From IMG/VR virus record IMGVR_UViG_3300042305_001483: a DNA stretch of 64,000 bases; one strand, written 5' to 3'. This DNA is from a virus. The notes below the pieces were generated by a model that did not search any database, was not told where the DNA came from, and worked only from the letters and a program-made list of their open reading frames with translations. Of this stretch, positions 24,689-50,425 are shown one piece after another. A program made the translations under genes and the position numbers. Numbering within the stretch: position 1 is the first letter of the stretch; every line of letters begins with the position of its first letter.

Positions 24689-24699
24689 TCCTATATTAT
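24671..24699 (+). promoter_or_regulatory. sigma70-like promoter of folE
   Basis: TTGACA-17-TATTAT. Confidence 0.6.
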
Positions 24700-24716
24700 T
24701 GAAGAAAGAGATCAAC

Positions 24717-25511
24717 ATGACTACACAATTTCAACCAGATAAAATTATGGCCAGTAAAGAAAAACCAGAATATGTACCAATAACTCATCCGCAGATCTTT
24801 GTAAAAGCAGATGATGCTCAAAAACTTGCTACTGAAAAAAACTTATCTCAAGTAATTAGAGAAAGAATTAAAAATGCAGGTGCAAGATTTCATTGTAATG
24901 ATAATATTTCAGAATTTATCAAAGACAACGAAATTGATCGTCTAGTCGATGAAGTTGCAGATCGATTCCAAGAAGTATTAAAATCATTAATTATTGATAC
25001 CGACAATGATCATAATACTCAAGATACTGCACGACGAGTTGCAAAAATGTTTGTCAACGAAACATTTAGCGGCCGATATAGACCTACTCCAAAAGTTACA
25101 GCATTTCCTAATATGGGATATAAAAGTCTGTACACCACAGGTCCTATTAGCATTCGCAGTACCTGTGCTCACCACTTTCAAAATATTGTAGGTAAGTGTT
25201 GGGTCGGAATTGTCCCCCAAGAAGAAGTTATAGGACTAAGTAAGTTTAATCGACTTGTACATCACATCTGTGAACGTCCTCAAATTCAAGAAGAAATGAC
25301 CACGCAAATTGCCGACGCACTAAAACAATATGCAAAGACAGAGCATATTGCAGTTGTGGTTAAAGCCGAGCATCATTGCATGACACACCGAGGTGTGAGA
25401 GAACATGAAAGTGATATGACCACAGCAATCATGTTAGGTGCATTTGAAAAAGATCCCGCACTCAAAAAAGAATTTTATGATATCTGTCTATCAATGAAGG
25501 GTCACAATTAA
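24717..25511 (+). CDS. folE: GTP cyclohydrolase I
   Basis: TARRVAKM, STCAHH, IGLSKFNR, PQIQEE, AEHHCMTHRGV. Confidence 0.95.
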   Translation: MTTQFQPDKIMASKEKPEYVPITHPQIFVKADDAQKLATEKNLSQVIRERIKNAGARFHCNDNISEFIKDNEIDRLVDEVADRFQEVLKSLIIDTDNDHNTQDTARRVAKMFVNETFSGRYRPTPKVTAFPNMGYKSLYTTGPISIRSTCAHHFQNIVGKCWVGIVPQEEVIGLSKFNRLVHHICERPQIQEEMTTQIADALKQYAKTEHIAVVVKAEHHCMTHRGVREHESDMTTAIMLGAFEKDPALKKEFYDICLSMKGHN

Positions 25512-37411: not shown

Positions 37412-37996
37412 ATGTTAGTACCAATGGTAATTGAAAAAACAGGACAAGGTGAAAGAGCATTTGATATCTACAGTAGATTACTCAATGAAAGAATCGTTTT
37501 CCTAAATGGTCCAGTAGACGATGTCAGTGCAAATCTTGTAGTAGCACAGATATTGCACTTAGAAAGCCAGGACAGCGAAAAGGATATTAATTTTTATATT
37601 AACAGTCCAGGTGGAGTAATCACAGCAGGAATGGCCATTTACGACGTAATGCAATTTGTTAAACCCGATGTTTCTACTTATGTTATGGGGCAGGCTTGTA
37701 GCATGGGAAGTTTTTTAGCGCAGGCAGGCACTCCGGGAAAAAGATATATGTTGCCTAATTCCAGACATATGATTCATCAACCCAGCGGAGGTGCAAGAGG
37801 CATGGCGTCGGACATTGAAATTAGTTACAAAGAAATCATGTTTTGGAAAACTAGATTAACTATGCTGTATGTAAAGCATAATTCTGCTGGAAAAACTTAT
37901 AATGATTTTGAAAGAGATATGGACCGAGATACCTTTATGAGCGCAGAAGAATCGTTAAAGTATGGCTTGTGTGATCATATAGTTCAACATAGATAA
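37412..37996 (+). CDS. clpP: ATP-dependent Clp protease proteolytic subunit
   Basis: [21 protein letters not shown] (Ser), MIHQPSGG (His), DRD. Confidence 0.95.
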
Positions 37997-38057: not shown

Positions 38058-38369
38058 ATGGCAAACAAATTACAACAATATAGAAGCAAAATTAAAAAAA
38101 TTAATGAAAATCAAATTTTATGGCTCAGACTTAGTGGGTTCGTAGTTATTTCTATTTTCATAGTTCTATTAGGATGGAATTTTTTAACAGATAACACTTT
38201 TATATACATAATCATTTTTTCTGGTTTAATTTTATCATGTTTCTGGTGGTATTTAACTATTAAATTAATAAAAGATTTATTAAACCACAGGAACACCGAA
38301 GTAGAAATTTTGAATGAAATAATTCAAGAACTTAAAGTTATCAAAGAAGATGTTAAAAAAATATCCTAA
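38058..38369 (+). CDS. 2-TM membrane protein with coiled-coil tail
   Basis: two hydrophobic helices, charged C-terminus. Confidence 0.65.
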   Translation: MANKLQQYRSKIKKINENQILWLRLSGFVVISIFIVLLGWNFLTDNTFIYIIIFSGLILSCFWWYLTIKLIKDLLNHRNTEVEILNEIIQELKVIKEDVKKIS

Positions 38370-38373
38370 CCTA

Positions 38374-38402
38374 TTGACAAGTTAAATAATAACTTATAAC
38401 AT
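38374..38402 (+). promoter_or_regulatory. sigma70-like promoter of queD
   Basis: TTGACA-17-TAACAT; predicted start about 38409. Confidence 0.55.
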
Positions 38403-38409
38403 AATACAT

Positions 38410-38452
38410 AGAGGACTTGACGCTCGACCCTCTTTAAATATTCCGCCCGTCA
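38410..38452 (+). ncRNA. candidate preQ1-I-like pseudoknot (riboswitch variant) in the queD leader
   Basis: P1 AGAGG/CCTCT, AC immediately before the P1 3' strand, P2 TGACG/CGTCA, A-rich linker; upstream of queD. Confidence 0.45.
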
Positions 38453-38486
38453 TCAAACTTGCTACCTAACATAAAGGAGACTAGAG

Positions 38487-38996
38487 ATGGCAAATCAACC
38501 TATTACCTATAAATGGACCAGCACTAAAGAATACCACGATTCTTTTCCCTGTGCATACAGACAATGGCGAGCCGATAGTCATTGTAATCTAATTCACGGC
38601 TACAGTTTTAGCATGAAGTTCTACTTTGGAACTAATGACCTCGATGTTCGAAACTGGGCTGCGGACTATGGCGGTCTTAAAGAACTCAAAAAAGTTTTAG
38701 AAGATCAATTCGATCACACGTTACTAGTTGCTCAAGACGATCCCCAACTTGAAACATTCAAACTACTCCAAGAAAAGAAAATGGCTAAACTTACTATCCT
38801 TCCAAGATTAGGTTGTGAAGGTCTAGCAGATATGTTATACAAGTATGTTAATGGAGTATATATTCCTCAACTATGGGGAGATGGGGAATCAAAACGTCTA
38901 TGGTGTTATAGAGTCGAAGTTCGTGAAACACAAAGCAACATGGCTTTTAGAGAAGGCCATCGTGAATGGAACGAAGATTTATTTGAAGAATTTTAA
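38487..38996 (+). CDS. queD: 6-carboxytetrahydropterin synthase / 6-pyruvoyl-tetrahydropterin synthase
   Basis: CNLIHGY, DYGGLK, FDHTLL, CEGLA, VEVRET. Confidence 0.85.
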   Translation: MANQPITYKWTSTKEYHDSFPCAYRQWRADSHCNLIHGYSFSMKFYFGTNDLDVRNWAADYGGLKELKKVLEDQFDHTLLVAQDDPQLETFKLLQEKKMAKLTILPRLGCEGLADMLYKYVNGVYIPQLWGDGESKRLWCYRVEVRETQSNMAFREGHREWNEDLFEEF

Positions 38997-38998
38997 AA

Positions 38999-39682
38999 AT
39001 GCTGTCAACTCAAATTATCATGGTCGGTACAACTAGTATACCGGCATTGGATAATTCAATAATTGATCAATTATTAGATTGGCACGATTCTAAAAAAACA
39101 ATTTTAGAAAATCCAGGGAGTATTGGTTTGAATACTCCCTGGGTGCATACAAAAATAAGAGATTCCGATCCGATGGAAAAATCAATACAAATAAAAAATT
39201 CAATCAGCGGATCTCCTTGGAATTTAGATTTTGTAGAAAATTTTCCAACTTTAGTAGAAAGTTTTAATCAATTACCACTAAATTTCATTAACAAAATTCT
39301 TATATTAGAAACTGTAAAAGAATGTGTTCCTCATATAGATGGAAGTAGTAGGACTTACTTAGATAAAAGTATCGAACCTTGTAATTATAGAATGCTTTTG
39401 AGAAAACCTAAAAACAGTAAGGGTTTTTATGTTCAACCATTATTAAAAGAAAATTTTGGAATTAGTGCAAGAAAAGAAATTGATACACCTTATTCTAAAA
39501 ATTATTACTCTCCAGAAATAGGAAAATGGTGGGTACTGAACAATTGGTGTTGCCAGCATGGCAGCGATTGGTTACCGGAAGATAATAAAGCGTTAATATC
39601 AGTGATAGGTACTCCATCTAATGAACACAAACAAATATTAAATTCATTATCAAACACAATTAAACACCCCGATTATACCTAA
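38999..39682 (+). CDS. putative 2OG-Fe(II) oxygenase
   Basis: VPHID ... WWVLNN..CQHGS ... KALISV. Confidence 0.5.
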   Translation: MLSTQIIMVGTTSIPALDNSIIDQLLDWHDSKKTILENPGSIGLNTPWVHTKIRDSDPMEKSIQIKNSISGSPWNLDFVENFPTLVESFNQLPLNFINKILILETVKECVPHIDGSSRTYLDKSIEPCNYRMLLRKPKNSKGFYVQPLLKENFGISARKEIDTPYSKNYYSPEIGKWWVLNNWCCQHGSDWLPEDNKALISVIGTPSNEHKQILNSLSNTIKHPDYT

Positions 39683-40167: not shown

Positions 40168-40338
40168 ATGGAAAATCGTAGTTGGACCCTTACTGTAGAA
40201 GAAGATCCTAAAACTGGAGAATTAATTCTTCCTCTTCCCGCAGAATTACTTGCTATGCAAGGATGGTTCGAGGGCGACACCCTCGAATGGGAAGATAATA
40301 AAGACGGAAGTTGGACTCTTAAGAAAGTCGAAAAATGA
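40168..40338 (+). CDS. AbrB/MazE-like small DNA-binding protein (56 aa; not in track)
   Basis: GELILPLPAELL..QGWFEGDTLEW; AAGGA SD; ATGA overlap with uvsE. Confidence 0.65.
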   Translation: MENRSWTLTVEEDPKTGELILPLPAELLAMQGWFEGDTLEWEDNKDGSWTLKKVEK

Positions 40339-41363
40339 CTAAACGCATTGGCTTTGCCTGCAAGTGGATTGACAATCCTGATCAAGTCAACGGTATTAAA
40401 CCCAAAGATGCTTGTAAAAAGTACAATACAGGCAGTACCACCGTTGCTTGGTTAAATAGACAAAGCAAAGATAAGGCCGTAGAAAAACTATGGGACCTTA
40501 TGAAGGGTAATATTGAATCTGCCCGTTTGCTAGTTGAACGAGTGGGCAATTTAAATGAAATTTTGCGAATGGTACGACTATCTAGCGACATCCTTCCTGT
40601 GTATACTGAGCCAAGCTGGTCTTGGTTTTACAGATCAACCGATGTCAGAGATTACGCAGAAAGACATTTTAAACGAATTGGAGATTCGGCCCGTGCGAAT
40701 AATGTTCGCCTTAGTTTTCATCCCGGTCAATTTTGCGTTTTGGCATCTGATAACCCAGATATTGTAAATAGATCAATAGAGGAGTTTGAATATCATGTGG
40801 ATATGGCCCGCTGGATGGGATACGGTAACGTATTTCAAGATTTTAAAATCAACGTACACATCGCGGGTCGAGTCGGTCCAGCCGGTATCCGAGCAGCACT
40901 TAAGAGACTCAGTCCAGAAGCAAAAAACACCATTACCATCGAAAATGACGAAATATCTTGGGGAATCGACTCAAGTCTCGAACTCGTCAACGATCTCGCT
41001 TTGGTGCTAGACATACACCATCATTGGATACACACAGGAGAATATATTGAAACTACTGACGATCGTATTAAAAGGATTATTGACAGTTGGCGTGGTGTGC
41101 GCCCTGTTATACACTATTCCGTTTCTAGGGAAGATGTACTTACAGGCCATCCCGGATTACAACGCCCCTCTCTTCCGACCCTCTTAGAATCTGGTTATAA
41201 GAAGTCTAAACTAAGAGCGCACAGTGATTTTTATTGGAATGATTCAGTCAATGAGTGGGCTTTGACTCACAGTCAATGGGCCGACATTATGTGCGAATCA
41301 AAGGGAAAAAATCTAGCCAGTGTTAATCTGGCTAGTATGGGAAAACAATTAGGACTTCTTTGA
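40335..41363 (+). CDS. uvsE: UV damage endonuclease
   Basis: IGFACK, RLSSD, RLSFHPGQF, IENDE, LDIHHH, HYS, AHSD, MCESKGK. Confidence 0.9.
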   Translation: MTKRIGFACKWIDNPDQVNGIKPKDACKKYNTGSTTVAWLNRQSKDKAVEKLWDLMKGNIESARLLVERVGNLNEILRMVRLSSDILPVYTEPSWSWFYRSTDVRDYAERHFKRIGDSARANNVRLSFHPGQFCVLASDNPDIVNRSIEEFEYHVDMARWMGYGNVFQDFKINVHIAGRVGPAGIRAALKRLSPEAKNTITIENDEISWGIDSSLELVNDLALVLDIHHHWIHTGEYIETTDDRIKRIIDSWRGVRPVIHYSVSREDVLTGHPGLQRPSLPTLLESGYKKSKLRAHSDFYWNDSVNEWALTHSQWADIMCESKGKNLASVNLASMGKQLGLL

Positions 41364-44884: not shown

Positions 44885-47800
44885 ATGTCAATTAGAGCAT
44901 CGCTATCAGAAGTTTTATCAATTGATTTAACGAATCCAACAGACAGTCAAACTGTTTTTATAGTAGGGCACGACGGTGTTGAGCAGACTCTTACTCCAGA
45001 AAGAGCAAGAACACTATTAAATACTGCCGGACCTGTTGGACCTCAAGGACCTCAAGGTATTACCGGACCTGTTGGACCTCAAGGTCCGCAGGGTGTACAA
45101 GGACCGCAGGGTGTACAAGGACCACAAGGTGTTCAGGGTCCGCAGGGTGTACAAGGACCACAAGGTGTTCAGGGTCCGCAGGGTGTACAAGGACCACAGG
45201 GTGTACAAGGTCCACAAGGTGTTCAGGGTCCGCAAGGTGTTCAGGGTCCACAAGGTGTACAAGGACCACAAGGTGTACAAGGACCACAAGGTGTACAAGG
45301 ACCTCAAGGTGTTACCGGCCCAAGCGGACCAACAGAAGTAACTGACGTACAAGGTGGAACTACTGGATCTATTCTAATTCAAAGTGCTTCCAGTCAAACA
45401 GCATTTATACCGTTAGGGCAAATAGGAAACATTTTACAGGTAATAGACGACAGCACCGCATCATGGGTAAGCACTTCGACCGTCCTAGTTGAAAGATCAA
45501 CAAAAGCAGAAACAATTTATGTAGATAATTTAGGTACATTAGAAATAACACCATTAAGATATATTACAATGTCTCTTGGTTCTGCAGATTATCAAGAATT
45601 AGGAGCCAGTTTAGGCCTATCTTATAACACTAACGAAAAAACATTAATTGTTGCTGCATTAACTGTTACAAATAATACAATATCTTCATCTCCACAAACC
45701 GGTGCTTTAAGAGTACAAGGTGGAGTTGGTATTGGTGGAGATCTGCATGTAGCAGGTGAAATTGTTTCACAAAAATTAACAATCGAATTAACCACGGTCA
45801 CTACTACGTTAATTGTAACAGATGATATTATCAAAACAAATAATACATCAAATTCTGTTTCAACAACAACAGGAGCATTAGTAGTTGCCGGAGGAGCAGG
45901 AATTGGCAGCGATTTAGTTGTCGGCGGAATTTTATACGCAGATAATATTTCTGGTAATATTACAACTGCAACAAATATAAAAGACGGTACTGTAAATCAA
46001 GTACCGTATCAAACAGGTCCGGGAACTACAGCATTTTTTGGCCCCGGTGAAGTCGGGCAAGTATTATTAAGCACAGGAACGAACACAGGTGGTCCCGTAT
46101 TTGTTGACCAAACTGAACTATATGTAGGTCGTTCTTTACTTGTAGATGATATTTTAGGTGGTGCAACAGGAAGTTTGCCATATCAAAGCACTTCAAACCA
46201 AACTGTGTTTTTAAGTTTAGGAAGCACAGGATCTGTACTAACTGCTGGTGCAGACGCTCCTGTATGGGTTCCACCTGATAACTTAACAATAGCGTTTGCA
46301 AATACTGCAACAAACCTAAAAGACGGAGCAGCAGGAAGTCTTCCATATCAAAGCGGCCCAGGTACAACTGTTTTCTTACCAATTGGTACCGAAGATCAAT
46401 TACTAAGTGTCAACAATTCTAATGCTCCAATTTGGGTTAATCGTTCTTCTATTACAGTATCAACTGCATCATTTGCAAACGATTTATTAGGTGGAGCATC
46501 TGGTTCTATTGTCTATCAAACTTCAGTTAATGATACTACATTTTTACCAATAGGAGCAGAAAAACAAATACTTACAGTTTCATCATCTGGTATTCCTCAA
46601 TGGATTAATAGAGAGGATGTTTCTGTTACCACTGCTACAAACATAGAAGATGGAACAATCAATCAAGTTCCTTATCAAATAAGCCCAGGAATTACAGGAT
46701 TTTTTGGACCGGGTCTTGTTGGACAGGTATTGTTAAGCACAGGAACCAATGCAGGGGGCCCTGTATTTGTTAATCAAACTGAACTATACGTAGGGCGTTC
46801 TTTACTTGCAGACGATATCGTAGGAGGCGCAACAGGAAGTATAGTTTATCAAAGCACAGCCAACAATACAGTATTTTTACCTATTGGAACAGAAACTCAA
46901 GTATTATCTGTAAATTCTCAAGGATTACCAGATTGGATCAATAGAGATAGTTTACAGGTTAATATTTCTGTTTATGCAGATAACTTATTAGGCGGATTGC
47001 CGGGATCTATTCCTTATCAAAGTGATATTGATACTACTACATTTTTAAATATAGGATCTACCGGAACAATATTAACTGTTAATTCATCAGGTTCACCGGT
47101 ATGGGTTAACAGAGATACTATATCTGTTTCCACTGCATCTTTTGCACAAGATTTATTAGGCGGTATTCAAGGAAGTATACCTTATCAAAACGCAGTTAAT
47201 GATACTGTGTTTTTAGGTATAGGATCGGAGGGTCAGGTACTAACAGTTAATTCTGCAGGGGTGCCTGTATGGGTTAACAGAGATTCATTATCAGTTACAA
47301 CTGCAACATTTGCACTTGATTTATTAGGTGGCGTAAAAGGTAGTATTCCATATCAAAATGCAGTAGACGATACTGTATTCTTAGCGATTGGAACCGAAGG
47401 GCAGGTTCTAACAGTTAATTCTGCAGGTGTTCCTGTATGGGTTAATAGAGGTACTATATCAGTTACTACTGCATCTTTTGCACAAGATTTATTAGGTGGT
47501 GCAACAGGAAGTATACCTTATCAAAATGCAGTAGATGACACTGTGTTCCTAGCAATCGGAACTGAAGATCAAATTTTAACAGTTAATGCCAGCGGATTAC
47601 CAGTATGGGTCAACAGAAGTACTGTAGCAGTTACTACTGCATCTTTTGCACAAGATTTACTAGGTGGCGTAAAAGGTAGTATTCCATATCAAAATGCAGT
47701 CAATGATACTGTGTTTTTAGGTATAGGATCACAAAATCAATTGTTATCTGTTAATGCCAGCGGATTACCAGTATGGATTAATAGAACAACATTATCTGTA

Positions 47801-50425
47801 ACAACAGCAACAAATATTGACGGCGGAACAATAAATCAAATACCGTATCAAATTGATTTTGGTCTCACTGGATTCTTTGGTCCTGGCGACACCGATCAAG
47901 TGTTAATTAGTAAAGGAACCGATCCCGGAGGACCAGCATTTGTAGATCAATCTACGTTAAGTGTAGGAAGTGCTAATATAGCCAACGAATTAAGTGGCGG
48001 TTCGGCAGGAAGTCTTCCATATCAGTCCGGTGCTAATAATACAACATTTTTATCTCTTGGATCTTTTGGATCTATACTAACTGCCGGTTCTACAGCACCA
48101 ACTTGGAGTGATCCGGGGGCGTTAACAATAGCAAATGCCAATACCGCAACAAACCTTGCAGGGGGCACAATTGGCAGTGTTCCATACCAAAGTAATCCTG
48201 GAACAACTACATTCTTAGGAATTGGTCTTCAATCACAAATTTTAACAGTAGGTGCTGGAAATTCATTAGAATGGGTAGATAGAGATACATTATCGGTTAC
48301 AACTGCAACATTTGCATTTGATTTGTTAGGCGGCGTAAAGGGAAGTATACCTTATCAAAATAATGCTAACGATACTATATTCTTAGGAATTGGCACACAA
48401 AATCAATTGTTATCTGTAAGCGCAGGAGGAGTACCTGTATGGGTTAACAGAGATACAGTATCTGTTACTACAGCATCTCTGGCTCAAGATTTAATAGGCG
48501 GATCAACTGGCGCTATTCCATATCAAAATACAGTTAATGACACGGTGTTTTTAAATATTGGTTCACCGACACAAATTTTGTCCGTTGGTTCGGGAAATAC
48601 ACCAGAATGGGTTGATAGTAGCAGTATGGCATCTTCTACTGCAACCAATCTTGCAGGTGGTGTAAAAGGAAGCATTCCATATCAAAGTAATCCAGGATTA
48701 ACTACATTCTTAGGAATTGGAGCACAAAATCAATTGTTATCTGTTAATGCTAGCGGGGTACCTGCATGGGTTAATAGAGATACATTGTCGGTTACAACTG
48801 CATCGTTTGCACAAGATGTACTAGGTGGAGCAAAGGGCAGTATTCTTTATCAAAATGCCGTAGATGATACTGTATTCCTAGCAATAGGAACAGAAAATCA
48901 AATTTTAACAGTTAATGCCAGTGGTGTTCCTGAATGGGTTAACAGAGACACATTGTCAGTAACATCTGCAGATAATTTAACAGGTGGCGCTGTTGGTTCT
49001 ATACCGTATCAAAATAGTGTAAATGATACTGTATTTTTGTCTATAGGATCAGAAAACCAAGTATTAACTGTAGGTAGTAACGGAAAGCCAACATGGTCTG
49101 GAAACGTTAATCAATCTAATACTTCTTTAACTTCAACAACTGCAACCAATCTTGCAGGAGGAGTAAAAGGCAGTATTCCATATCAAAGTAATCCAGGATT
49201 AACTACATTCTTAGGCATCGGCTTAGAAAATCAAATCTTGAAGGTCAGTGCAGAAGGTATTCCATTTTGGTCAGATACAGCAGGTGCTGCTGGTTCAGCA
49301 GCGGATGCAGATAAATTAGATGGTTTAAATTCTACACAATTCTTAAGAAGCGATGTAGGCGATACATGGGCTGCAACTGATGGTCCGTTAATTATAACAA
49401 CGCCTACAGGTGCTTTAGGAAATAATACAGGACAGGTTAACACACTTCAAGTTTATCAAGCGACTCTTAACACAGATGCATATATGACCTTCCATATTGG
49501 AAGTGATTATGCTGTACATTTTGGTCTAGATGGAACAACCAATGATTTATTCGTCGGTGGTTGGAGTGCAGGTGCTGTTAAAAATAAAATACTTCATTTA
49601 GGTAATACTTCATCAACAGATGTTACTTTTGATGTAGTAAGGGCTAAACAGTTTTACGATTCTGAAAATAGCAATTATTCATGGAATCCAAATACCAGCG
49701 ATGCTCATCGATTTAATACACCATCTGGATGGTTAGATTTAGGGCCAATGAATTCCAGTTATTGTCATTTCCAAACTGATAGAGATTTATTTTATTTTAA
49801 TAAAACAATAGATGTAGACGGAAGTGTTAGATTATATGATGACAATGCTAACAGATTTGATCTAGGAACATTAGTGTTGAGAGGTGCAAGTCCAACAGTA
49901 TACCTACGAGACACAAATAATAACTCAGCAATGTTACATTGCACTAGTGATTTATTTTATATTTTAAGAGGTGGCAATGACACAGAAACCTGGAGTCAAG
50001 TAAACAGTCAATGGCCTGCTTATTGGAACTTAACTAATAATCATATGTTTGCCGGTGGCGACATTAATGCCGTAGGCGAAGTTACAGCATATTATTCAGA
50101 TAGAAGATTAAAAACAAATGTTAAACCTTTAGAAAATGCATTAGAAAAAGTAGAAAAACTAAACGGTATAACATACAACCCAAATGACTTGGCTGAAAGT
50201 TTTGGATATGATAAATCAACTAACTTAGTTGGATTATTTGCTGATGAGGTAGAATCAGTTTTACCCGAAGCAGTAAAAAATGCACCTTTTGATAGAGATG
50301 AAAACGGAAATAGTAAATCTGGAGAAAATTACAAAACTGTTCAATATGAAAGATTAATTCCGTTATTAATCGAAGCAATTAAAGAACTATCAGAAGAAGT
50401 AAAGCAATTAAAATCAAAACAATAA
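44885..50425 (+). CDS. long tail fibre protein: collagen segment, ~20 tandem ~55-60-aa repeats, C-terminal peptidase S74 chaperone
   Basis: (GXY)34; GGxxGSIPYQ repeats; [11 protein letters not shown]...LIEAIKEL. Confidence 0.85.
45029..45334 (+). repeat. collagen-like tandem repeat, including 12 x 18-bp GPQGVQ units (45083-45298)
   Basis: 34 Gly-X-Y triplets counted. Confidence 0.95.
45960..49270 (+). repeat. about 20 degenerate tandem coding repeats of ~160-180 bp
   Basis: recurrent A.DLLGG..GSIPYQ....TVFL.IG...Q.L.V...G.P.W. Confidence 0.85.

Follow-up and report, generated by a model that had tools for sequence, protein, structure and literature searches.

What does the preQ1-I-like pseudoknot in front of a phage queD gene do? 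The question is raised by IMG/VR record IMGVR_UViG_3300042305_001483, a viral stretch of 64,000 nucleotides (nt) that we refer to in its entirety as the window, in which an intergenic leader follows an open reading frame (ORF) ending at 38369 and runs up to queD at 38487–38996. An earlier note, made from the sequence alone, had placed a variant preQ1-I-like riboswitch in this leader, and the sequence and coordinates of the leader and of queD in the window match its description exactly. We found that 38410–38452 folds as a member of a conserved pseudoknot family present at hundreds of phage loci. With modest confidence we read it as a phage-specific cis-regulatory RNA, a candidate small-molecule switch that would turn translation of queD ON. 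The window leader alone folds unremarkably (minimum free energy (MFE) z = −1.14), so the question had to be decided by comparison with relatives.

An IMG/VR search with the QueD protein gave 588 confirmed relatives, and 80 loci were kept for leader comparison. The motif lies directly upstream of the QueD ORF in 77 of 81 loci, counting the window; the other four comprise two truncated loci, one with a mismatch in the first stem (P1) and one with no leader. The link also holds from the RNA side. A DNA pattern derived solely from the RNA core, independent of the protein, occurs in at least 120 viral stretches; of the 80 that were examined, 79 have QueD no more than 1 kb downstream, some of these QueDs being only 31–60% identical to that of the window. 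A second pattern, built on the window's own aptamer variant, added at least 119 stretches, about 116 of them with QueD; together with ten matches to patterns for discordant base combinations these make 129 loci, 120 with QueD downstream. Overall the family numbers at least 273 phage loci, with 186 distinct aptamers of about 48 nt among the matches listed. A QueD-like gene lies downstream in about 270 loci, and the motif is present once per phage record.

The motif is phage-restricted and almost absent from bacteria. A pattern scan of bacteria and archaea (185,579 species, each represented by one genome) returned five matches. A single one is genuine, with QueD downstream, and lies on an 8-kb contig from a Chitinophagales metagenome-assembled genome; the other four are chance partial matches. 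None of three aptamers had a BLAST match among 50,697 GenBank phage records, and the cultured phages ACP17, R5C, Me-ZS1 and BUDD, which encode the same QueD family, have no such leader and no match to R1, a covariance model that we built from the relatives. The carriers are environmental metagenome contigs in IMG/VR, including genomes of 283 and 383 kb. In the literature searched, the motif is nowhere described.

The relatives bear out an H-type pseudoknot at the 5′ end of the queD mRNA, with P1 and P2 at exactly the coordinates first proposed, and both stems covary heavily across 150–186 distinct relatives. The architecture consists of P1 (5 bp), L1 (NCU plus 0–10 nt), P2 (7–8 layers), a 2-nt N-C junction and a 10-nt L3 (WUAMAWA-YUC). 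P2 is composite, with 3–5 variable pairs, a U/C mismatch, and then C-G and A-U/G-C. The parts of the leader in the window are as follows.

38374–38402, plus strand: sigma-70-like promoter, TTGACA (38374–38379), 17 nt, TAACAT (38397–38402); 10 of 12 consensus positions, a consensus match only.
38410–38414, plus strand: P1 5′ strand, AGAGG; P1 is fully paired in 174 of 186 distinct aptamers, with three covarying positions.
38415–38417, plus strand: L1, ACU; family form NCU, with C and U nearly invariant.
38418–38423, plus strand: P2 5′ strand, UGACG(C); U38418–G38422 pair with 38448–38452, and C38423 lies opposite C38447.
38424–38426, plus strand: U38424, facing C38446, and the P2 extension C38425 and G38426, which pair with G38445 and C38444; A-U or G-C in 183 of 186 distinct aptamers.
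38427–38428, plus strand: two-nucleotide junction A-C (L2); C38428 is invariant in the family (186 of 186).
38429–38433, plus strand: P1 3′ strand, CCUCU, pairing with 38410–38414.
38434–38443, plus strand: L3, UUAAAUAUUC; family form WUAMAWA-YUC, its fourth base tracking the middle P1 pair in a base-triple-like way.
38444–38446, plus strand: C38444 and G38445, the 3′ side of the P2 extension, and C38446.
38447–38452, plus strand: P2 3′ strand, (C)CGUCA, which doubles as the 5′ arm of the start-codon-sequestering helix.
38449–38454, plus strand: GUCAUC, pairing with GAUGGC at 38486–38491, which contains the AUG (38487–38489); this helix excludes P2 and vice versa, and is retained in 39 of 39 leaders of the window's type (type a).
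38461–38467, plus strand: GCUACCU, predicted partner of the SD region (38475–38481) when the aptamer is unfolded (MFE prediction only).
38475–38479, plus strand: Shine–Dalgarno (SD) sequence AGGAG, ahead of the queD ATG at 38487.
38487–38996, plus strand: QueD-like 6-carboxy-tetrahydropterin synthase/PTPS gene (PF01242, 7e-16; phrog_2389, 4e-37).

P1 is 100% paired in the MAFFT alignment while three of its positions vary, giving AGCGG/CCGCU, AGAGG/CCUCU, AGUGG/CCACU, ACCGG/CCGGU and UGCGG/CCGCA, with GG/CC at one end invariant. Its middle pair is complementary in all 76 pattern matches that were selected without regard to the 5′ strand. P2 was tested in a register fixed by rule and not by pairing, with the five bases that precede the L2 loop set against the five that follow the conserved tail; over 96 sequences, 79% were paired compared with 54% after shuffling. 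With the extension included, and 150 distinct sequences aligned without gaps or fitting, pairing reaches 84.2% of cells compared with 60.0% in shuffles (0 of 500 as high), the covariation score is 0.675 against 0.249, and slid controls reach 24–45%. We used gap-free, rule-based alignments here instead of R1, which failed to re-register the 4-bp and 5-bp P2 classes. R1 was trained on the A-U sub-family and is biased accordingly; it matches the window once in 64 kb, at 38408–38455 (E 1.4e-5), with 41.8 bits, a score that undervalues the window.

The five P2 pairs of the original proposal (38418–38422 with 38448–38452) are present, and the stem is longer than proposed. Beyond the mismatches C38423/C38447 and U38424/C38446 it continues to C38425–G38445 and G38426–C38444, so that L2 shrinks to A38427–C38428. 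In the relatives, loop UCAYC contributes its CA and the invariant tail YUCUGC its UG to this pairing, and a change of A to G goes with a change of U to C; the pair is A-U in 111 of the 186 distinct aptamers, G-C in 72 and something else in three. Scans aimed at discordant combinations found one true A·C case and no G·U case. Another pairing, of the tail CUGC with the GCGG of P1, was rejected, as the tail does not follow changes in P1. The window sequences UCGAC, UUAAAUA and UUCCGC are the consensus of the large G-C sub-family, so the window is not a degenerate copy. It has the full family signature: an R1 match, paired P1, P2 and P2 extension, the invariant loop bases and a downstream QueD.

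About 15 unpaired positions are invariant across the family. The C directly before the P1 3′ strand is present in 186 of 186 aptamers, preceded by U in 106, A in 53, C in 26 and G in one. The corresponding C38428 occupies the place of the preQ1-I specificity cytosine (PMC11625349) and may share its role. The earlier note had stressed that P1 and the AC before its 3′ strand are those of a preQ1-I aptamer. This is true of the invariant C, and the window bases are identical to type II sequences; the AC itself belongs to one large sub-family, UCGAC occurring in 52 of 186 aptamers (UC in 106, CC in 26). L1 begins with ACU in 77, UCU in 56 and CCU in 47 of the 186. The fourth base of L3 is A with an A-U or U-A middle P1 pair in 76 of 76 cases, and C or U with C-G in 102 of 106, counts that ignore kinship; such coupling would be expected of an L3 placed in the minor groove of P1.

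At least five downstream designs follow this one aptamer, and in all of them the aptamer 3′ strand is complementary to the ribosome site, either the SD or the start codon. The GUCAUC/GAUGGC helix of the window covers the start codon, whereas a CCUAUG/CAUAGG helix over the SD is retained in 42–45 of 45 leaders. Further designs use GCCAUUG/CAAUGGC or AUGUCU/AGACAU, and the platform of the G-C sub-family is ACUCC/GGAGU together with the tail CUCC itself. The SD lies 10–25 nt beyond P2 in the family. Partition-function folding predicts that the window SD is unpaired with a probability of 0.22 when the P2 3′ strand is free and of 0.83 when this strand is blocked. We folded 184 distinct leaders in this way, withholding only the tail and the P2 3′ strand. 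Predicted SD accessibility rose from 0.27 to 0.74 (n = 112) and from 0.34 to 0.77 (n = 72) in the two sub-families, increasing in 163 of the 184 leaders and decreasing in five. As withholding the aptamer 3′ strand frees the SD in these energy models, we infer that pseudoknot formation should turn translation ON.

A mechanism can be proposed on this basis. As long as the pseudoknot is unformed, the aptamer tail and the P2 3′ strand would sequester the ribosome site; in the window, the OFF state would combine GUCAUC (38449–38454) paired to GAUGGC (38486–38491) with pairing of the SD. A small molecule held between P1 and P2, and pairing with the invariant C38428, would stabilise the pseudoknot, release the ribosome site and allow QueD to be translated. 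In such a pocket the invariant C of the two-nucleotide junction would stack on the G-C end of P1, with the A-rich L3 probably in the P1 minor groove. Because the fold resembles preQ1-I, the ligand most likely presents a guanine-like face. By analogy it is possibly a host-made 7-deazaguanine (preQ1 or preQ0), or a pterin such as 7,8-dihydroneopterin triphosphate, which is the substrate of QueD and the product of the phage FolE. The ON logic could then be a feed-forward response to the FolE product, or could sense the ability of the host to finish the pathway, although both ideas are speculation.

The aptamer probably forms the very 5′ end of the mRNA, as promoter-like sequences are placed just before P1. 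In the window, the sigma-70-like promoter predicts a transcript start at about 38409–38410, the first base of P1. Of 136 distinct upstream regions, 84 contain a T4-late-like TAA[AG]TA that ends 3–14 nt ahead of P1, and another 19 accommodate a sigma-70-like promoter.

Several observations weigh against a small-molecule ON switch. All of its support is computational. An ON switch on a biosynthetic gene is unusual, and its logic would be counter-intuitive if the ligand were the end product of the pathway. The invariant loops are equally suited to a protein partner. The sequestering helices vary on one side only within each design, and compensatory changes were not found, as the SD, the AUG and the next (Ala) codon constrain the 3′ arms. 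In 71 of 76 distinct leaders of type b, the loop of the SD-sequestering hairpin contains an extended −10-like TGnTAnnnT (mostly TGCTATAAT). All type-b loop variants retain TAnnnT, and the site lies 15–21 nt before the start codon (for example L007:2975–2995 and L064:2967–2990); judged by its sequence, it may give a second, unregulated transcript start that lacks the aptamer. Finally, homology to preQ1-I is unproven, since the Rfam PreQ1 model stays below threshold.

These points bear on what else the leader could be. T4 gene 32 and Escherichia coli rpsO (S15) have leader pseudoknots that serve as translational operators, and the queD leader could likewise bind a phage or host protein, possibly QueD, that shifts the balance between the pseudoknot and the sequestering helix. 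Invariant single-stranded bases within covarying stems suit a protein as well as a metabolite, the small-molecule ligand of the queD leader is a candidate only, and phages are well known to use translational operators (for S15/rpsO, PMC3985624). We nevertheless consider an operator unlikely. The RNA is nearly invariant while the linked QueDs diverge to 31–40% identity, the leader is missing from cultured phages that encode the same QueD family, the motif has just 48 nt and one copy per genome, and its invariant C on a G-C-closed P1 together with an A-rich L3 reproduces the layout of the preQ1-I small-molecule pocket. Quite improbable, in our judgement, is an element that works with no ligand at all, holding QueD translation at a constant or physically tuned level by stabilising the mRNA 5′ end, by timing its folding or as a structure sensitive to temperature or Mg. 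Its position at the predicted transcript 5′ end would fit, competition between a pseudoknot and a hairpin can answer temperature or ions by itself, and the carriers are contigs from environmental metagenomes. Such an element would have no need of some 15 invariant unpaired bases, a junction C and a covarying base-triple-like contact, and the joining of one aptamer to at least five platforms is a modularity typical of sensors.

An ordinary preQ1-I riboswitch that binds preQ1 and switches queD off would explain the shared P1, specificity C, A-rich L3 and gene context, and the AGAGG/AC/CCUCU of the window, which is identical to type II sequences. We regard it as very improbable. Rfam 15 (preQ1-I, -II and -III, SAM-II and -V, guanidine-III, THF-I and -II, and all other models) gave no relevant match at gathering score in the window and 20 relatives, and none, including to RF00522, at E ≤ 10 when the leaders of the window and of L064 were scanned alone; chance matches to rimP, snR33 and freshwater-2 were dismissed. 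Membership of preQ1-I was thus not upheld: the best RF00522 score elsewhere was 14.6 bits, in one of five phage records, against a gathering threshold of 39 bits. In addition, L1 differs, the YUCYGC tail and the long P2 are extra, and the SD lies neither in nor beside P2, whose 3′ strand pairs with the SD or AUG in the opposite logic. A candidate small-molecule ON switch remains the interpretation that we favour, and the hedge of the earlier note, which allowed for a variant, another ligand or a protein-bound leader, was apt.

The regulated gene is, as first suggested, an enzyme of the preQ pathway. By its sequence the window QueD is a genuine member of its family; it is 44% identical to QueD of Microcystis phage Me-ZS1, with which it shares the motif SHCxxIHGY. 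The Me-ZS1 gene sits in a QueE-QueC-QueD-FolE-TGT cluster. In the 64-kb window, tblastn detected no QueC, QueE or TGT. Two further genes of the window are relevant here.

24699–25511, plus strand: GTP cyclohydrolase I (FolE), which acts one step ahead of QueD; its gene lies 13 kb upstream of queD.
38999–39682, plus strand: 227-aa ORF, 3 nt after queD and probably co-transcribed.

In each of the two carrier genomes that CheckV rates as complete (383 and 283 kb), FolE is accompanied by a single motif-linked QueD, and there is no Pfam match to QueC or TGT; QueE may be present in them, given their many radical-SAM genes. With FolE and QueD and neither QueC nor TGT, the regulated gene is a stand-alone early-pathway enzyme. 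Records G001–G004 (of L074, L040, L068 and L046) encode 6–14 radical-SAM domain proteins each, partly clustered (220–237 kb in G002), a load that is unusual for a phage, and one of these proteins may be a divergent QueE.

Gene neighbours of QueD are not conserved between relatives. The 227-aa ORF has no Pfam match, its 22 relatives are all annotated as hypothetical, and it is not kept beside QueD in relatives; on the minus strand within it, 39113–39142 forms a 12-bp terminator-like hairpin with a T-rich tail. Contig L006 (1295–6156) has the order FolE, a cytidylyltransferase-like gene, motif-QueD, a 215-aa unknown protein, a DAO-type FAD oxidoreductase and a 298-aa protein with weak radical-SAM/Fer4_12 matches. 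In the window, the queD locus is closely flanked by a ClpP protease homologue upstream (37412–37996) and a UvdE UV-endonuclease downstream (40335–41363); L040, the complete 383-kb relative, likewise has UvdE after QueD. Farther on, an 1846-aa ORF (44885–50425) comes after two structural-protein-like genes. In a few contigs (L150, L160 and L189), QueD is separated from the RNA motif by another ORF, which in L150 encodes a cupin-like protein of 113 aa and in L160 a protein of 243 aa bearing a methyltransferase-like DLGCGWN sequence; the RNA motif can thus stand first in a small operon. In L073, a partial second copy of the aptamer 5′ half (UAUGCGGACUUAGACAUUCAUCCCGC; 2215–2255, R1 19.9 bits) lies about 640 nt upstream of the complete motif and is probably a remnant.

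Surveys have concluded that phages rarely use riboswitches and have speculated that they prefer undiscovered classes (PMC5473149). The queD leader is a concrete candidate for such a class: its 48-nt aptamer covaries very strongly and recurs on hundreds of contigs from uncultivated phages. Should it bind a metabolite, the preQ1-like pseudoknot folds would gain a class in which the same scaffold has been rewired from OFF to ON; the leader would also offer a handle on why large phages carry just FolE and QueD, and would give engineers a very small natural ON switch. The family lends itself to direct tests, as the RNAs are short, the candidate ligands obvious and the compensatory mutants clear (C38428; G38426/C38444). 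We tentatively raise a broader possibility, that this is the first widespread and essentially phage-confined riboswitch class, an offshoot or convergent mimic of preQ1-I whose logic is inverted. A 7-deazaguanine or pterin made by host or phage would then turn ON a stand-alone QueD, so that the phage would read the queuosine or pterin state of the host before committing GTP-derived flux.

To our knowledge, all described preQ1 riboswitches repress (OFF), and some small H-type pseudoknot riboswitches of other classes are ON switches. In a 2024 review, preQ1-I is an H-type pseudoknot with a specificity C preceded by U (type I) or A (types II and III), a G-C pocket floor closing P1, an L1 with UU and an A-rich 3′ tail, and its ligand occludes the SD or promotes termination (PMC11625349). 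The phage motif is likewise an H-type pseudoknot, with a 5-bp P1 closed by G-C, a P2 formed from the 3′ tail and the P1 loop, an invariant C 5′ of the P1 3′ strand that U or A can precede, an A-rich L3 beginning AUAAAAA or AUACAAA, and a small size upstream of a queuosine-pathway gene. The two have the string AGNGG..(U/A)C-CCNCU-AUAAAAA in common. The motif is the top RF00522 match in one 108-kb phage record, below threshold at 14.6 bits; conversely, in 75 kb around 25 genuine preQ1-I riboswitches, four of the top five sub-threshold matches of R1 fall exactly on those aptamers.

The description as a preQ1-I-like variant thus holds for P1, the invariant C, the A-rich L3 and the gene context, and fails for the Rfam score, L1, the YUCYGC tail and the inverted platform. 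L1 is NCU, whereas bona fide preQ1-I examples show UUC. L2 has 2 nt, L3 has 10 nt, and P2 has 7–8 layers with an invariant CR/YG element; L3 runs into the invariant YUCYGC and not straight into a short P2 3′ strand. In preQ1-I, P2 holds or abuts the SD or a terminator, whereas the phage P2 3′ strand is an anti-SD or anti-start sequence, which predicts ON. The motif is confined to phages, and the window and two complete carriers have no detected QueC or TGT. We therefore do not file it as a member of preQ1-I; it resembles that fold and may descend from it.

With SAM-II/SAM-V, guanidine-III and fluoride riboswitches, the motif shares a possible ligand clamp at the pseudoknot junction and a pseudoknot 3′ strand that is shared with the platform, but there is no Rfam match, and the conserved nucleotides and gene association are unrelated. 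The leaders of T4 gene 32 and E. coli rpsO (S15) are also 5′ pseudoknots that compete with an alternative fold to control translation; those are autoregulatory and repressing, whereas the queD leader has no evident partner and a pocket layout that mimics a small-molecule aptamer. The riboswitches reported in phages, for glutamine at glnA in cyanophages and pelagiphage-like phages and c-di-GMP-I in Clostridioides difficile prophages (PMC5473149, PMC9004378), are phage-encoded candidate metabolite sensors as well, but they are rare copies of bacterial classes, whereas the queD motif is abundant in viral contigs. With riboswitches in general it has in common a 5′-untranslated-region aptamer, covarying helices, invariant unpaired bases, variable platforms and mutually exclusive pairing.

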